A stretch of 4,941 nucleotides of DNA from a virus (Duplodnaviria; Heunggongvirae; Uroviricota; Caudoviricetes), in the IMG/VR virus record IMGVR_UViG_2734482780_000003; one strand, written 5' to 3'. Shown piece after piece: positions 1 through 4,941 of this stretch. Position 1 is the stretch's first letter. Every line of letters starts with the position of its first letter. The position numbers and the translations under genes are program-made. The notes under the pieces were generated by a model. That model ran no database searches. It was not told the origin of the DNA and was given only the letters and a program-made list of their open reading frames with translations.

Positions 1-260
1 AATTTCCCTTTGCATACCAGGGCAAAACCTTTCCAGCCGATATACACCGTCAGGACAGCGCCACGAACCGGCAGCCCGACCTGCCCGTCGGCATCGTTCA
101 GTTCAATATCAAGCTGGTCAGCCTCAAAGCCCCGGTTATCCGTCAGGGTCATGCTCATCAGACGGTCGCTGATATTGCCGGTAATATCCCTGCTGTCGAG
201 CATCAGCATGTAATCCGGCGTCAGCGTACTGCCTGCATCAAATGTCAGCGCATCCAGCAT
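1..260 (-). CDS. D: Phage tail protein D (P2 gpD-like), N-terminal part only; the gene continues beyond the window start
   Basis: ATG at 260..258 opens a minus-strand frame with no stop down to position 1, translating MLDALTFDAGSTLTPDYMLMLDSRDITGNISDRLMSMTLTDNRGFEADQLDIELNDADGQVGLPVRGAVLTVYIGWKGF..., which I recognise as the gpD N-terminus. The start overlaps the U stop (TAATG). Position after U matches P2 order T-U-D. Absent from the ORF track because it has no in-window stop. Confidence 0.8.
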   Translation of the reverse strand, partial: MLDALTFDAGSTLTPDYMLMLDSRDITGNISDRLMSMTLTDNRGFEADQLDIELNDADGQVGLPVRGAVLTVYIGWKGFALVCKGK

Positions 261-739
261 TATCCCGCCCCCGTCATACCCGTGAATTTAGTCGCCATAC
301 TGCCAGCCTTACCGATGAGCGATTCCGCCTGTTTACCGATATCGCCATAAAGCGCGACCAGTGATTCATCAACGCGGGTGAGCGACAACGTAAAATCAAT
401 TTTCCGGGGTGTGCCGTCTGCAAAGAAAATACTCCCTGTTTCACTCACCCTGCTGATGACATACATGCCGTAAATCATGCCGGTGCCATCCAGCAACGGC
501 CACGCCCGGCCTTCCTCTGCCATCAGCCTGAGCGTGGTCATCGTCAGCTTCCCGCCGGTCAGTTCGGGATAAAGCACGCCGGCAAGCGTCATGTTTTCCT
601 CACCCACACCGAGAAACTGAAAGGCATCCCGTTTACCGATACGGGAATTTGACGGCCAGCGATAATCTGATTCGCGCTGCATGGTCTGGTGTGGCAGCGT
701 CTGGCGCATAAAAACAAACATACCTAACGCGAGCATCAT
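260..739 (-). CDS. U: Phage tail protein U (P2 gpU-like), 159 aa
   Basis: Complete ORF from ATG 739..737 to TAA 262..260. A GGAGGTGA Shine-Dalgarno (reverse complement of 744..751) sits about 6 nt upstream of the ATG. Product MMLALGMFVFMRQTLPHQ...TGMTGAG matches my recollection of gpU. Lies immediately downstream of the T stop, as in P2. Confidence 0.88.
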   Translation of the reverse strand: MMLALGMFVFMRQTLPHQTMQRESDYRWPSNSRIGKRDAFQFLGVGEENMTLAGVLYPELTGGKLTMTTLRLMAEEGRAWPLLDGTGMIYGMYVISRVSETGSIFFADGTPRKIDFTLSLTRVDESLVALYGDIGKQAESLIGKAGSMATKFTGMTGAG

Positions 740-753
740 TTTTCGTCACCTCC

Positions 754-2083
754 TTAACCGTCATGCATCATGCTGGCACGGGCGCGCGCACGTTTATCCC
801 GCTCGTATTTTTCGAGCGCATCCTGTAACTGGCGGTCAAGCTGTGTCCCCGGCGCAGTACCACCCGTCAGGCTGATGTGATATTCGTTTTTACTCTGGTC
901 CACATAAGAGCGGCCAGCCGGTGCCGTGACCGGCTGATAAGCCTGATAGCCTGCATAAGAGCTGGTCGCCGGAATATAACCACCGGTGCCATACGTGGCG
1001 GCATTAGTCCTTGCGGCGGTCTGGTCAAGTGTGTCTGACTCTTTGTTGATGACACCGAGTTTTTCCAGTACCCAGTCAATACCACTGCGCAGTTTGTTGA
1101 ACGCATTAAGCGGCAGCATCAACGCGTCAGCCAGTGCCTGCCCGAACATGACACCCGTGTCACGGCAACGGTTCAGGGTGTCCTGGGTGGCTTTGACCGG
1201 GGCAATCAGGTTTTTAAACCACTGCCACGCGGCCTGTAACTTTTCGCCCAGCCAGTCAAACACCGGCTTAAGTGGCGTGAACAGTTCCCCCACCGGCGCA
1301 AATGCCGCTTTCAGCCCTTCCACCACACCGCCAAAGAATGCGCTGACAGGCTCCCAGTATTTACGAATAAGCAACGCCCCGGCGACAATGGCGGCCACCA
1401 CGGCAACAACCGGCCAGCTAATCGCCCCGATGGCCGTCATAACAGCACTGCCAACCGTCGTGAAGATTGCCCCCATTGCGCCTGCTGCCGCGATGATGGC
1501 ATTGATGCCGGTGATAACCGGCCAGGCTACGAGGCCAATGGCACCGATGACGCCAGTCAGCGCCAGTGCGCCACCGACAATTAGGCCAATGGTTGACGCC
1601 AGTGATTTGTTTTTCTGGATCCAGCCGTCGAGTTTTAACACATACTTTGTGGCCGTCTGTGTGAGCTTACGCAGTGCGCCTTCCTGCTGGTCAAACAGGT
1701 CAGTCCCCACCGCTTCATAAGCGGACTGAAACTCCTTAAAGTCACCGCCGAGGTTATCCTGCATGATTTTAACCAGCTCTTCCGTTTTACCGTCCGAGGC
1801 TTTCAGCGTGGCGGTCAGCTTATCCAGTTTTCCGCTTGCTGCCGCTGCCAGTAAAACGTTCGCTGATTTCAGGGCTTCCTCACCAAAAATGGTTTTAAGG
1901 TATTCCCCCTTCTGAGACGTTCCCAGCTTGTGTTTATCAAAGCTGGCCTGAATCTCTTTCAGAATGGTGAACAACGGGCGCATATTTCCCTTTTTGTCCG
2001 AGGTTTTAACGCCAAGCTCTTTGAGTGCATCCCATGCTTTCCCTGTCGGAGCCTGTAATCGGGTGACAACGGCACTGCTACCC
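754..2083 (-). pseudogene. T: Tail tape measure protein T (P2 gpT-like), 5'-truncated: C-terminal portion only, frame intact to the native stop
   Basis: Minus-strand frame is open from 2094 to the TAA at 756..754; the first ATG is at 1983..1981, giving the 409-aa track ORF. The product has tape-measure character (central Gly/Ala-rich hydrophobic segment, ending ...EKYERDKRARARASMMHDG) and is followed by U and D. There is no N-terminal half: upstream the sequence switches abruptly to the 5' end of J. Confidence 0.75.
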
Positions 2084-2188
2084 GTAAAGGGAAATCAGTG
2101 TCGCCTTGCGTTCAGCGAGAATGCTTTCAAAGTCCAGCTCCTCGACCACATCCGGTGCGGGTAGCTGGTTCAGGTCGATAATTGGCAT
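2078..2188 (-). pseudogene. J: Baseplate assembly protein J (P2 gpJ-like) remnant: first 35 codons, then one non-native Gly codon and a TAG stop
   Basis: ATG 2188..2186, four nt after the W stop, translates MPIIDLNQLPAPDVVEELDFESILAERKATLISLYG*. I recall this as the gpJ N-terminus, which in P2 continues ...SLYP.... Here homology ends after the Tyr codon (2086..2084) and a TAG follows at 2080..2078. Confidence 0.75.
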
Positions 2189-2192
2189 GGTT

Positions 2193-2540
2193 TCAACTCA
2201 CAGGGATGGTTAATGAAAGTGGCTGGCCGGTGTCGTTGTGCTGGCCGGTTAACGTGGCCGTCATTCGCCCGTCAAAACTGCGCTCAGTGGTGACGGATGA
2301 CAGGGTGACGCGGGGTTCCCATTTCAGCACCGCCATGTAACAGGCGACCTTAATCTGCAACTCAAGCGCCGGGGTCTGCGGCTGGTCAATCATTGATGCC
2401 AGCAACGAGCCGTAATCACGACGCATCACCCGTGAGCCGACCGGTGTGCGCAGGATATCGCCGATACTCTGGCTGATATGCTCAAGGTCAGTGACAGTCA
2501 GGCCATCACTGCGATTCATTCCGAGATAACGCGCTGTCAT
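2193..2540 (-). CDS. W: Baseplate wedge protein W (P2 gpW-like), 115 aa
   Basis: Complete ORF from ATG 2540..2538 to TGA 2195..2193. The start overlaps the V stop (ATGA). Product MTARYLGMNRSDGLTVTDLEHISQSIGDILRTPVGSRVMRRDYGSLLASMIDQ... matches my recollection of gpW. Synteny V-W-J. Confidence 0.9.
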   Translation of the reverse strand: MTARYLGMNRSDGLTVTDLEHISQSIGDILRTPVGSRVMRRDYGSLLASMIDQPQTPALELQIKVACYMAVLKWEPRVTLSSVTTERSFDGRMTATLTGQHNDTGQPLSLTIPVS

Positions 2541-3172
2541 AAAGGACTCCCGGTTGTGCCGCCGCTGTCGCCGGGGTGTTTATGGGTATGCAGTACCTTA
2601 CCGTTTGATGAGAGTTCACCGCCGGTGTGTTCAATGTTGCCGCGCATCGTCCCGCCCTTCTGCACTTCCAGCGTGCCGGTAATCAGCCTGTTGGTGCAGA
2701 CCACCTCCGGGGTGTCCAGGGTGACGCGGGTTGATGCTTTCACCATGAACACCGGCACCGTGGCAGTAACAGAATCAGAAGCCGTCACGCTGGCCGTTTT
2801 AATTCCGCTTACCGTGAGTGCACTGGTTTCGGGTTCATATTCAATCACCGCCCCGTCAGGGAAACGGATATGCAGGGCATCCGCCGACACAGACGGCGAG
2901 GGGTTATCGCCGGAATAAATCCCCGGCAGAACGAACGCCGTGTCGAGTTCACCACCCACGGCCAGAATCAGCACCTGTTCCCCCACGGAAGGTGCCCACC
3001 ATGTGCGCGAACGCCCGGCACGATGGGTCAGCCACTGAAGCCAGTCGGTGCACATGCCGCCGGTCTGCACGCGGCAGCGACCGGCGTTAAGGTCGGTTTC
3101 GACGATAATGCCGGTGCGAATCATGTTGCGCAGTGCGCGCGCGAGTTCCTGAATATTTGCGAGAGTGTTCAT
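2537..3172 (-). CDS. V: Baseplate spike / central hub protein V (P2 gpV-like), 211 aa
   Basis: ATG at 3172..3170 (MNTLANIQELARALRNMIRTGIIVETDLNAGRCRVQTGG...) to TGA 2539..2537. The track ORF starts 6 codons earlier at a TTG (3190..3188), which I reject in favour of the ATG. Product matches my recollection of gpV. Confidence 0.88.
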   Translation of the reverse strand: MNTLANIQELARALRNMIRTGIIVETDLNAGRCRVQTGGMCTDWLQWLTHRAGRSRTWWAPSVGEQVLILAVGGELDTAFVLPGIYSGDNPSPSVSADALHIRFPDGAVIEYEPETSALTVSGIKTASVTASDSVTATVPVFMVKASTRVTLDTPEVVCTNRLITGTLEVQKGGTMRGNIEHTGGELSSNGKVLHTHKHPGDSGGTTGSPL

Positions 3173-3182
3173 GCATGTGAGA

Positions 3183-3240
3183 TTGCACAATATATAAAAG
3201 TTATGCTATCTGGATTCATTTGTAGAACTACCAGACAACA
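3183..3240 (-). promoter_or_regulatory. Candidate Ogr/Delta-activated late promoter for V (P_V-like): TGT...ACA partial dyad plus an AT-rich -10-like element
   Basis: On the minus strand upstream of the V ATG: TGTTGTCTGGTAGTTCTACA (3240..3221) contains TGT-N11-ACA (or TGT-N14-ACA), followed about 30-40 nt downstream by TTTTATATATT (3199..3189). P2 late promoters carry a TGT-N12-ACA activator site near -55 and P2 has a late promoter in front of V. The spacing here is not an exact match to the consensus as I recall it. Confidence 0.4.
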
Positions 3241-3255
3241 TTCAAGGAGAGCGTA

Positions 3256-4041
3256 ATGGTCAGCTATAATGTGACTAATGTGTGGGGGCTAATCGTTTTT
3301 TTCCTTTGTAGCTTTGCAGTATTAGCATTTTTTAGCTTTGGTAAAAGTAACCTTATGAGGCTTATTGCACATTATTTCAATTTTGGATATTCAGACAAAA
3401 AATTAAAAAGACTTGACCGCGAGTGGCGCGACATTCAACTATTTAAAATAATTAACGGAATCAATGTATCAGGCATTGAAAATGTGAGAATGATACAGCA
3501 GGGACTGATTGATGGAAAACTAAAAACATCGTATTTTTTCCTTACTCGCATCTGGGGTGACATAACAAAACCACCACACATAATTAAAACAATAATTGTA
3601 ATTCTGGCCAGTATTATTTATATTCTCTTCGCATGTTATATACACAACAAACAATCCGCTATAGTAAGAGATGCCATAGGCATACCATATAAAAATATGA
3701 TGTACTATGTTTATAGTGACAAAGTTCTTTTATCCTTCAAAAATAAAGCAGTTGAATTTAATAAAACTTATAGCCTTGCCGATTGCAAGAGACTGCAAAA
3801 CGTATTTATAAAAGACACACTTCCTGAAATCGCCTGCAATAAGCTCTTACAGCTAAACGAGGAGGACTCCGAATGGTTAAGCCAGGAGATTAAAGATAAT
3901 AACAGTCACAAAAAAGCATTATTAATACTATCCCTCGTCTATTTCACTTCAGGTCTGGTTATATTCCTGTCATATACAAAATTCTTTTACGCCAATAAGA
4001 AGGTTTTAGAATACAAAGCATCAAATAAAAATCACTCATAA
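3256..4041 (+). CDS. Hypothetical AT-rich membrane protein (261 aa, three predicted transmembrane helices); cargo gene at the S/V junction, the position occupied by orf30 in P2
   Basis: ORF from ATG 3256 to TAA 4039..4041. AAGGAG Shine-Dalgarno at 3244..3249 with 6-nt spacing. Followed 6 nt downstream by a 13-bp perfect hairpin. Composition is markedly AT-rich (roughly one-third GC by eye, against more than half in the flanking phage genes) with many ATA/AAA/AAT codons. Hydrophobic segments at residues ~9-29 (VWGLIVFFLCSFAVLAFFSFG), ~108-130 (HIIKTIIVILASIIYILFACYIH) and ~221-241 (ALLILSLVYFTSGLVIFLSYT). Orientation is opposite to the surrounding phage operons. No recognisable homology from memory. 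Confidence 0.7.
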   Translation: MVSYNVTNVWGLIVFFLCSFAVLAFFSFGKSNLMRLIAHYFNFGYSDKKLKRLDREWRDIQLFKIINGINVSGIENVRMIQQGLIDGKLKTSYFFLTRIWGDITKPPHIIKTIIVILASIIYILFACYIHNKQSAIVRDAIGIPYKNMMYYVYSDKVLLSFKNKAVEFNKTYSLADCKRLQNVFIKDTLPEIACNKLLQLNEEDSEWLSQEIKDNNSHKKALLILSLVYFTSGLVIFLSYTKFFYANKKVLEYKASNKNHS

Positions 4042-4046
4042 ACCTC

Positions 4047-4083
4047 TAAACATTGAGCGACCAGCATGGCCGCTCAATGTTTA
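4047..4083. terminator. Bidirectional intrinsic terminator hairpin between the convergent cargo gene (+) and S (-)
   Basis: Perfect inverted repeat TAAACATTGAGCG (4047..4059) / CGCTCAATGTTTA (4071..4083) around an 11-nt loop (4060..4070), with possible extra CCA/TGG pairing inside the loop. It lies 6 nt after the cargo stop and about 30 nt after the S stop. T/A-rich runs follow on both strands (TTAATT on plus; AGAGGTTTATGAGTGATTTTTATTTG on minus). Confidence 0.7.
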
Positions 4084-4112
4084 ATTGCGCATCAGCCTCT
4101 GCCTGGATAAAA

Positions 4113-4565
4113 CTAACGCTCAAGGTGAGCCAGGATAATCTCCTCAATCATCTGCACATCCTCACCGGTAAAGCCGAGCAGAGGACGCGCCGGATAATCA
4201 ATTTTCTTACCGTCTTTCCGGGTTTCTTCCGACAGACCGAACTGATGCACACTGGCGATTTTCGGCGACTTCCCGCCGTAAAATTCCATTGATGCCTGCT
4301 CCGGGCTGGCGCGGATATGCAAAAAACGACTGGTGATAAGTTTCGCAAACATTTTTCGCTTAACACGACCAGTCTTTTTTCTGGCGCTCTGCTGCTGGCG
4401 TGGCGCGTAGGGTGTGCCGTCCGGGGCTTTCTGAGCCATCACCCGACGCTGCTGACTCTGCCGCAGACGTTTCGCCAGTTCGGCGCTCAGTCGCCGACGC
4501 CCTGACGGTGACAGCGATTCAATCAGTCCGGTCAGCCGGTCTTCAAAACGCTTAAACTCATTCAT
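4113..4565 (-). CDS. S: Tail completion protein S (P2 gpS-like), 150 aa
   Basis: Complete ORF from ATG 4565..4563 to TAG 4115..4113. The start lies 8 nt inside the R stop region (R TGA at 4560..4558). Product MNEFKRFEDRLTGLIESLSPSGRRRLSAELAKRLRQSQQRRVMAQKAPDGTPYAPRQQQSARKK... matches my recollection of gpS. Confidence 0.88.
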   Translation of the reverse strand: MNEFKRFEDRLTGLIESLSPSGRRRLSAELAKRLRQSQQRRVMAQKAPDGTPYAPRQQQSARKKTGRVKRKMFAKLITSRFLHIRASPEQASMEFYGGKSPKIASVHQFGLSEETRKDGKKIDYPARPLLGFTGEDVQMIEEIILAHLER

Positions 4566-4941
4566 CCCACTTGCTCACCAGTTCGCCATTGATATAAAGC
4601 TCCACCGGGCGGGTGACCGGCTCCGGCGGCGTGGGTTCCGGGATATTCTTCACATGCAGTGCGCCGTCCACCTCACTGACCAGCGTGCGCTCGGTCAGCA
4701 TCAGGCTGATGCTGATATCAAAGCTGCTGTCATTGTTGATGTCTGCATAAAACGTGAAGCCCTTTTTCTGGCCTTCGTCAGTGGTCATGATGTCGGGCTG
4801 ATTTTCCCGCAGCCACGCCAGCACCGGCACGATGAGCAGGTCAAAATCACCGGTAAAGTCGGTCACAATCACATTGAGCGTGTAACGCTTTTCGAATGAC
4901 AGCGACGTCGCCAGTGTGGAGGCAATACTCCCGTTACACGC
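4558..4941 (-). CDS. R: Tail completion protein R (P2 gpR-like), C-terminal part; the 5' end lies beyond the window end
   Basis: Minus-strand frame is open from the window end to TGA 4560..4558, translating ACNGSIASTLATSLSFEKRYTLNVIVTDFTGDFDLLIVPVLAWLRENQPDIMTTDEGQKKGFTFYADINNDS...SKWDE. The track start at 4872 is an internal GTG; the true start is upstream of the window. Matches my recollection of gpR and the R-S order. Confidence 0.82.
   Translation of the reverse strand, partial: ACNGSIASTLATSLSFEKRYTLNVIVTDFTGDFDLLIVPVLAWLRENQPDIMTTDEGQKKGFTFYADINNDSSFDISISLMLTERTLVSEVDGALHVKNIPEPTPPEPVTRPVELYINGELVSKWDE

Follow-up and report, generated by a model that had tools for sequence, protein, structure and literature searches.

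Phages P2 and Wphi are the closest described counterparts of the DNA considered here, a 4,941-nucleotide stretch from a viral record (IMG/VR record IMGVR_UViG_2734482780_000003), which we call the window and treat at its full length. The window resembles both phages in gene order, in the overlaps between genes, in promoter and terminator positions, and in the lengths of the encoded proteins. Defective P2-like prophages, such as the K-12 ogrK-D' remnant, PSJ-12, NCTC9041 and Z1324PEC0010, resemble it in carrying internal deletions with short microhomology. Illegitimate recombination between short homologies, or alternative end joining, occurs in E. coli, and the first step in the inactivation of prophages has so far been inferred mainly from prophage size distributions. 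Because gene order, sequence identity and protein families agree, the window can be assigned, on its sequence, to the late (tail) region of a P2-like (Peduovirus) prophage of Escherichia coli, and this prophage is judged defective because essential tail genes have been lost. Here, we describe evidence that the window is an ordinary P2-like prophage region that has undergone one very recent illegitimate deletion, a member of a recurrent class of deletions that end at a particular TA in the baseplate gene J and in which breakage or strand exchange is favoured at TA dinucleotides within a sequence motif. We assign this interpretation a probability of roughly 80%.

The prophage of E. coli EC261 (NZ_AP027423), which occupies the fieF/pfkA attachment (att) site, was the closest relative of both arms of the window among the 5,426 complete E. 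coli genomes searched, and the closest relatives in general sit at this site. The right arm, window 2084-4936, corresponds to positions 14001-16853 of the EC261 locus (L001 among the loci fetched for comparison) with no differences over 2,853 bases (100%), and the left arm, window 1-2086, corresponds to L001 3290-5375 with 7 differences over 2,086 bases (99.66%); neither arm contains an insertion or deletion. In comparison, the right arm is 98.4% identical to P2 8544-11396, and the left arm is 99.5% identical to the T-U-D genes of Wphi. The window lacks 8,628 bp of the intact EC261 prophage, and its two arms are joined at a 3-bp microhomology (TAC). The deletion junction thus occupies window 2084-2086, reading GTA (TAC on the gene strand), which is common to both parents and includes a palindromic TA at 2085-2086. 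The sequence on the J side of the junction is ...GATTTCCCTT-TA and that on the T side is TA-CGGGTAGCAG. The native partner site in T, ATGGCGGG-TA-CGGGTAGC, has a score of 6, the top score, for the motif described below.

The deletion has removed gene J from codon 36 onward, genes I, H and G, a cargo gene located between G and FI, the sheath gene FI, the tube gene FII, E/E', and gene T up to approximately codon 372. According to the P2 record, the genes lost wholly (I, H, G, FI, FII and E/E') or in part (J at its C-terminal end, T in its N-terminal half) are essential for virion assembly. P2 genetics therefore predicts that no tail could be built and that the element would be unable to form infectious particles alone. 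An R-type tailocin of the P2-derived kind was considered and rejected, as it is the sheath, the tube, the fibres and the greater part of the baseplate that the deletion removed.

The J endpoint of this deletion is used repeatedly. The 36-residue product J', which is left by the truncation of gpJ, clusters with other short proteins, fifteen in all, every one of which is an N-terminal fragment of gpJ. Nearly all of these leave the gpJ sequence immediately after ...KATLISL(Y) and continue into at least eight different tails: YG-stop in the window, and elsewhere YGR-stop, L-stop, YISAWGCK... (a J'::FI fusion), YAGWYI-stop, YRMW-stop, YRR-stop and YLT-stop. The contigs of this cluster were fetched and mapped onto the EC261 prophage, which revealed 13 distinct events joining ...CTGATTTCCCTTTA to different partners, located in H, FI (4 sites), T (3 sites, one of them that of the window), D (2 sites) and elsewhere. 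The prophages that carry such junctions occupy three att sites (fieF, yegQ and pflB) and have integrases of 326, 337 and 331 amino acids. Direct inspection added a fourteenth rightward junction, to ogr-proximal DNA in L009, and in three more J junctions the partner was not mapped. Additionally, two leftward deletions stop at the same TA and retain ...TA-CCCGGAAG; one of these, in an IMG/VR contig (L025), begins in V, and the other, in the complete genome of strain LZHX12, begins in lysC. In total, there are 16 distinct J junctions with mapped partners (14 rightward and 2 leftward) and 3 with unmapped partners, all at the same TA or in a register within 3 nucleotides of it. The J endpoint nucleotide of the window is thus also the start of at least 18 other independent deletions. 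Wherever the native sequence of the partner is known, it has a TA at the crossover; in two cases allelic variants of the reference have this TA and the reference itself does not.

Complete genomes were also searched with a 200-nucleotide probe centred on the J site, for which 7 of 1,509 best places were partial matches, compared with 0 of 1,506 for a control probe in the middle of J. A second control, at the V/W boundary, proved unusable because of mosaic divergence. With this 200-nucleotide probe 79 of 1,514 best places were partial, and the one example listed ends near the V stop codon, which has the look of a frequent crossover point of mosaic recombination, between V and divergent alleles of W. 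The individual J deletion alleles are rare, as expected for recent, short-lived events.

Endpoint reuse extends beyond J. Across all fetched loci, 37 distinct junction events were found and 74 endpoints were mapped, with coordinates given on the reverse complement of L001. Eight sites are reused (portal 5730, terminase 6957, 12948, lysC 13834, V 16125, J 16850, FI 22544 and FI 22989), and a further site, 14403, was seen three times; these sites lie in the portal gene, the terminase gene, the lysis region, lysC, S, V, J and, twice, in sheath gene FI. Furthermore, in four remnants drawn as an evenly spaced sample of a whole-prophage search in which J was not considered, three of the known sites were reused, where approximately 0.1 coincidences were expected. 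The portal site was seen only in prophages with the 326-residue integrase, and the terminase-site events with a known att site (L007 and L027) are in prophages with the 337-residue integrase, a third event (L010) being untyped; the numbers in both cases are small. A search of the literature found no description of a P2 deletion hot spot or of reused endpoints, which is not proof of novelty.

A TA common to both parents lies at the crossover in about two-thirds of the junctions, and in approximately 10 of 22 when the J events are set aside, while TA makes up about 4% of positions. Alignment of 25 TA endpoints in free orientation yielded the motif TA-N-C-S-G, in which 22 of the 25 have a C at +2, 22 an S at +3 and 18 a G at +4. 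This matrix has an information content of 9.39, compared with 7.94 +/- 0.39 (maximum 8.88) in 60 random sets of TA sites. Within 9 nucleotides of all endpoints, the enriched words are GGTA/TACC (z 5.1), CCG/CGG (z 4.8), CGGA/TCCG (z 4.2) and CCGG (z 4.0). The motif is equally strong on the retained and the deleted sides of the endpoints, which makes the whole a symmetric site, CSG(N)-TA-(N)CSG. The use of a TA as an endpoint climbs with the symmetric score, from 0 of 554 TAs at scores of 0-2, through 5 of 335, 7 of 180 and 10 of 71, to 3 of 8 at the top score, and the excess of the motif is found separately in the partners of J (p 1e-5) and in the non-J sites (p 5e-7).

Among the junctions whose partner is known, all but L037 take the base before the TA from the left parent and the one after it from the right parent, which places the crossover within or adjacent to the 2-nucleotide TA. 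This anatomy, which like the reuse of sites is a matter of direct observation, fits a 2-nucleotide staggered cut or TA-mediated end joining and does not fit the segregation of a 4-nucleotide heteroduplex. The most likely course of events for the window is a single, very recent illegitimate-recombination event that removed 8.6 kb, from codon 35 of J to approximately codon 373 of T. In such an event, we infer, breakage or strand exchange would take place preferentially at symmetric GC-flanked TA sites, and the ends would be rejoined through the 2-nucleotide TA. A broader hypothesis is that the P2-like prophages of E. coli are inactivated non-randomly by site-preferring breakage and rejoining at CSG(N)-TA-(N)CSG, with J codon 35 as a major hot spot, and that a dimeric nuclease or recombinase, encoded by the host, a defence system or a plasmid, "grounds" prophages by the removal of tail and head genes. 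We advance this hypothesis tentatively, and consider the odds to be somewhat against it.

Several agents could act at such sites. The first is a dimeric site-specific enzyme that would cut CSG(N)TA(N)CSG at its central TA with a 2-nucleotide stagger and then exchange or religate the ends, a serine-recombinase-like or restriction-like protein supplied by the host, a plasmid or another prophage. The placement of the crossover within a shared TA in every junction with a known native partner except L037 is consistent with such an enzyme, as are the symmetry of the motif, its equal strength on deleted and retained sides and the climb of TA use with score. The involvement of three integrase types likewise points to a common host or external factor. 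No candidate enzyme was found, however, and L037 joins the same J and FI-a pair as another locus in a different register. Moreover, several partners have poor motifs, and about one-third of the deletions use other microhomologies. We therefore regard an enzyme of this type as possible but doubtful.

Known recombination and nicking systems were considered as sources of the activity. Conservative site-specific recombination of the integrase, invertase or Rci type is not supported, as there is no recognisable site with a fixed register in both partners. Action of the prophage integrase at pseudo-att sites was rejected: the P2 core AAAAAATAAGCCCGTGTAAGGGAGATT was confirmed and does not contain the TA-N-CSG motif, and prophages with 326-, 331- and 337-residue integrases are all involved. 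The P2 att core does show resemblances to the J and terminase sites. For the shufflon recombinase Rci, some partners are similar to the right arm TCCGGTACGTGG, but crossover takes place in the spacer GTGCCAA and not in the CCGGTA arm. Nicking by gpA, an HUH protein, was rejected because the nick at the origin, between GCGCCTCG and GAGTCC, is unlike the endpoints; among these, a similarity to the sequence 3' of the nick is limited to the portal hot spot. At that hot spot, GAATCCTGTCCTGTAAC (approximately 5715-5740 of the L001 reverse complement) resembles the P2 origin just 3' of the gpA nick (GAGTCCTGTCAATAAC; L036 29885-29915), and the crossover lies 13-15 nucleotides from the nick-equivalent position. 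The terminase was rejected since its cos nick sites lack a TA. Deletions formed by the insertion sequence IS30, which generates a 2-bp target duplication, keep a copy of the element, and none is present at these junctions.

An alternative view is that the DNA is broken by a nuclease of the OLD (TOPRIM) family, of which P2 Old, a Gabija-type GajA and the host YbjD are examples, or by a trapped type IIA topoisomerase (gyrase or Topo IV), and that the ends are then joined by microhomology at a nearby TA. The GajA of B. cereus recognises AATAACCCGGATATT, with a CCCGG core, and nicks between CC and GGGTTATT (PMC8136825). In comparison, the J site is CTTTACCCGGAAGAT, and many of its partners read C-GGGTA. 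The tin-old cargo slot of P2-like prophages often holds OLD or AAA_15/21 nucleases, and the gyrase consensus centre, in which CGGCGGTAT and ATACCGCCG flank GGGG, and the type IIA determinants have a CGGTA/TACCG half-site in common with the partner sites. On the other hand, GajA cuts in its GC core rather than at a TA, its specificity is known for the Bacillus enzyme only, and the cargo nucleases vary between loci. Trimming back from a cut inside the motif was rejected, as it predicts the motif on the deleted side only and the two sides gave 9 vs 11 (p 0.8). Gyrase and Topo IV were rejected as well: despite the common half-site, their register, in which the cut falls 1 nucleotide after the TA with a 4-nucleotide stagger, fails to reproduce the observed junctions, and a plain 4-nucleotide overhang model predicts two product types where one is seen. 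A symmetric topoisomerase register, CSG/NTAN/CSG, would fit if the 5'-linked nucleotides were removed and the gap filled in, but this contradicts the known -4G/-2A/-1T determinants. Of the agents considered, type IIA topoisomerases and the nickase GajA are the two leads that are left; breakage by these nucleases or topoisomerases is, on balance, improbable.

The cargo slot itself, which lies between gene A and the portal gene (L004-L015 and L026-L030), carries very diverse defence-type genes. Examples are genes for an OLD-family nuclease, AAA_15/21 ATPases, a reverse transcriptase with an ATPase, GmrSD with a HEPN domain, and C5- and N6-methyltransferases. A HIRAN-domain protein (PF08797) is also found there, with only a faint match for HipA coupling.

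A third possibility is that no enzyme specificity is involved and that replication slippage or template switching takes place at imperfect repeats and small hairpins, the products being made visible by strong selection for the inactivation of the prophage. Two sites do map to hairpin loops, the J site in a small hairpin (GATTTCC...GGAAGATC) and lysC 13834 in a GCCG/CGGC hairpin. Several pairs share 6-13 nucleotides of imperfect direct homology, and the J and FI-a pair has been joined in two registers. The stabilities of the hairpins are ordinary, however (z -0.2 to -2.2), and at several recurrent sites the TA is in the stem; hairpin extrusion was rejected on the same unremarkable fold energies. 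Most J junctions, furthermore, have only TA or TAC in common with their partner, yet 1 of approximately 860 TAs in the region has been used at least 16 times, and a 2-nucleotide homology leaves the preference for GG/CC flanks unexplained (p 2.5e-4). We consider slippage of this kind an unlikely source of the junctions.

Recency of the deletion also bears on the condition of the genes that remain. The earlier note on this sequence had pointed out that the retained reading frames are open and that the native start and stop overlaps are preserved; the open reading frames, their translations and the P2 record bear this out, genes R and D running off the ends of the window. It had offered either a very recent deletion or purifying selection on the remnant as the explanation, and the comparison with EC261 upholds the first. 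Five complete genes, S, orf30, V, W and U, are unchanged relative to EC261. The truncated T has 5 differences (4 synonymous and 1 non-synonymous) and the part of D within the window has 2, both synonymous. The seven differences lie at positions 18, 252, 865, 1582, 1588, 1714 and 1820, and four of the seven carry the P2 base. Since the window has the P2 state at those four positions, they represent standing phage polymorphism rather than change after the deletion, and at most 3 substitutions are private to the window. With 3 or fewer private substitutions across 4.9 kb, even neutral evolution would not be expected to have produced a stop codon or a frameshift. The sequence comparison thus supports the view that the intact frames reflect the recency of the deletion, and selection need not be invoked.

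The distribution of the allele is in agreement with a recent origin. None of the 5,426 complete E. coli genomes carries the junction allele; the sole occurrence found is in one Logan contig, which is listed for two samples and is the only Logan contig in which the exact 36-residue J' product is recorded. A 28-mer spanning the junction had no match in GTDB representatives, a short J-anchor pattern gave only chance matches in unrelated phyla when genome contigs were searched, and scans of metagenomes and IMG/VR contributed just 3 relevant loci. The earlier note had itself named uniqueness of the deletion to one assembly as telling against its selective reading, and the allele is essentially unique to one assembly. 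The recurrence of the J breakpoint had gone unnoticed in that note.

That the remnant has been domesticated, with purifying selection on the retained tail or regulatory genes, or on orf30, keeping the frames intact, has in our judgement a slight chance. In 2014 Bobay, Touchon and Rocha reportedly found defective P2-like prophages of enterobacteria to be under purifying selection, and the ratio of non-synonymous to synonymous substitution rates (dN/dS) of the retained genes against P2 is 0.07-0.42. These values derive, however, from divergence among functional phages; they reflect the history of such phages and say nothing on the period after the deletion. Against the nearest intact relative there are at most 7 differences (6 synonymous and 1 non-synonymous), 4 of them in common with P2, which leaves nothing attributable to the remnant and no statistical power on selection after the deletion. 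In addition, the inactivating allele is private rather than conserved across diverged hosts, and V, W, U and D have no known use when J, I, the sheath and the tube are missing. Purifying selection on the remnant, as the earlier note envisaged it, is thus unnecessary, and orf30 is a native, non-essential gene in the P2 record rather than cargo peculiar to the remnant. More generally, the lack of decay in a remnant is no evidence of selection where an identical intact relative exists.

An artefactual origin of the junction, as a chimeric contig assembled from two P2-like prophages in one genome, is very unlikely. In its favour, the arms differ in closest relative and in divergence, and the Logan contig SRR2239636_264 ends 75 bases after crossing the junction on one side and 23 bases outside the window, past its right-hand end, on the other; contig ends of this kind suggest that the source strain has a second P2-like copy. 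Against it, this contig (2,954 bp, listed for two samples) is an independent k-mer assembly of the reads that matches window 2011-4941 at 100% over 2,931 bases and so crosses the junction, de Bruijn mis-joins do not yield 3-bp overlaps, and the same anatomy is present in the other 13 mapped rightward J junctions, which come from unrelated assemblies including complete long-read genomes.

Several observations weigh against a single recent deletion of the J-TA class as the full explanation of the window. All 7 differences from EC261 fall in the left (T-U-D) arm (p approximately 0.002). The two arms therefore have different histories, and the parent may have been a mosaic prophage or a tandem double lysogen rather than a single prophage of the EC261 type. 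The window covers only 4.9 kb, and the descriptions "prophage" and "tail-defective as a whole" rest on its relatives. The J junctions were gathered by way of J' fragments, so that the hotness of J relative to other sites is unmeasured, and the signal from complete genomes is 7 vs 0. The same J-FI junction (reference 16850 to 22551; approximately 10104 in L004 and L008) is present at two att sites, fieF and yegQ, so that either the identical deletion arose more than once or the allele was passed between prophages; some events may share ancestry or may have spread by homologous recombination. The J and FI-a pair has been joined in two registers, at TA in L004 and at ACC in L037, which disfavours a strictly conservative recombinase and favours breakage nearby followed by microhomology joining. 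About one-third of the junctions lack a TA and use other microhomologies. Finally, the motif was defined on the same endpoints on which it is tested, which makes the test partly circular, and the sample is small.

The genes of the window are arranged on the minus strand in the order R (part)-S-V-W-J'-'T-U-D (part), with orf30 on the plus strand between S and V, as in the late region of a P2-like prophage. Assignments to the Pfam families GpR, Phage_tail_S, Phage_base_V, Phage_spike, GPW_gp25, PhageMin_Tail and GpU were all above the curated cut-offs. The completeness of retained genes was judged for the genes other than R and D, which are cut by the ends of the window; the complete genes have the same lengths as in P2 and EC261, and the alignment with EC261 is free of gaps. 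The junctions between native genes are those of the P2 record, with overlaps of 8 nucleotides (R/S), 4 nucleotides (V/W) and 1 nucleotide (U/D, at position 260, as in EC261), and gaps of 4 nucleotides between W and J and 14 nucleotides between T and U.

At the left end, the first 86 codons of gpD, the late control and tail protein, occupy 3-260 (minus strand) in an open frame, and the gene continues past the end of the window; this part has no base differences from P2 and two synonymous differences from EC261. The predicted tail protein gpU is complete (260-739, minus strand; 159 amino acids; PF06995, E 6e-44) and identical to the EC261 protein, and the exact protein was found in intact prophages in 10 of 10 sampled contexts. 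The C-terminal 443 codons of the 815-residue tape measure protein T extend to the native stop codon at 754-2085 (minus strand). The native start of this fragment, 'T, is gone and its earliest ATG is at 1983, the Pfam PhageMin_Tail match spans only profile positions 138-201 of 201, and no record of the 409-residue product of this reading frame was found among known proteins. J' (2078-2188, minus strand) consists of 35 native codons of the baseplate gene J followed by a glycine codon and a stop, for a product of 36 amino acids that ends ...LISLY-G-stop, codon 35 of J being joined out of frame to approximately codon 373 of T. Complete genes for the baseplate wedge protein gpW (2193-2540, minus strand; 115 amino acids; PF04965, GPW_gp25) and the baseplate spike gpV (2537-3172, minus strand; 211 amino acids; PF04717 and PF18715, Phage_base_V and Phage_spike) follow.

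Upstream of V, coordinate transfer from the P2 record (10239-10266) places a putative binding site for the Ogr-type activator of the late promoter P_V at 3214-3241 (minus strand). Because the F-operon promoter P_F sits in the deleted segment, P_V would be the sole late promoter remaining upstream of V-W-J'-'T-U-D. A putative terminator of the O operon is placed at 4047-4083 (minus strand) by transfer from P2 9397-9433. The tail completion genes lie beyond it, S complete (4113-4565, minus strand; 150 amino acids; PF05069, E 5e-44) and R represented by its C-terminal 127 codons (4558-4941, minus strand; PF06891), the gene continuing past the end of the window. The orf30 homologue (3256-4041, plus strand) is an open reading frame for a protein of 261 amino acids, nonessential according to the P2 record, that is transcribed against the late operons. 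Its G+C content is approximately 33%, compared with approximately 55% in its neighbours, its product has hydrophobic stretches at the N- and C-termini, and the exact sequence is present in 553 contigs (cluster report). The product has no match in Pfam or PADLOC.

The window as an object is itself ordinary; what could matter is the reuse of endpoints at single-base resolution in a symmetric sequence context. If the process proves to be enzyme-based, it would provide a concrete, testable mechanism for a rapid first step in prophage inactivation, and prediction of which prophage genes are lost first would become possible.

Compared with the described systems, the window differs from P2 in lacking both the segment from J codon 36 to approximately T codon 372, which is about 9.6 kb in P2 coordinates, and the F-operon promoter, and in that J' and 'T are mutually out of frame. 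The EC261 prophage retains the complete J-I-H-G-cargo-FI-FII-E-T block that is absent from the window, and the last five bases of the window (4937-4941) diverge from it; these bases match the Logan contig exactly and look like a mosaic boundary inside gene R. Several deletions and a higher divergence are usual in the other defective P2-like prophages of E. coli, whereas the window has one deletion and essentially no divergence; many of those remnants have endpoints at the J, V, FI, lysC, portal and terminase sites named above. The prophage of E. coli PSJ-12 (NZ_AP027622; L002) has a different tail deletion, in which the 3' end of J is fused near E through a CTG microhomology (reference 17576 to 24126), and its block of head genes is rearranged and partly inverted. 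The GajA site resembles the endpoints in having a CCCGG core between A/T stretches and a degenerate, partly palindromic recognition sequence (PMC8136825). Its organisation is the reverse of theirs, with a GC core, AT wings and a cut in the core, whereas the endpoints described here have an AT centre (TA) with GC flanks and a crossover at the TA. Finally, the junctions resemble the products of short-homology end joining in having 0-3 nucleotides of perfect homology and no mobile element remaining at the junction, but their endpoints are reused at a single nucleotide and are flanked by a symmetric motif, neither of which plain microhomology predicts.

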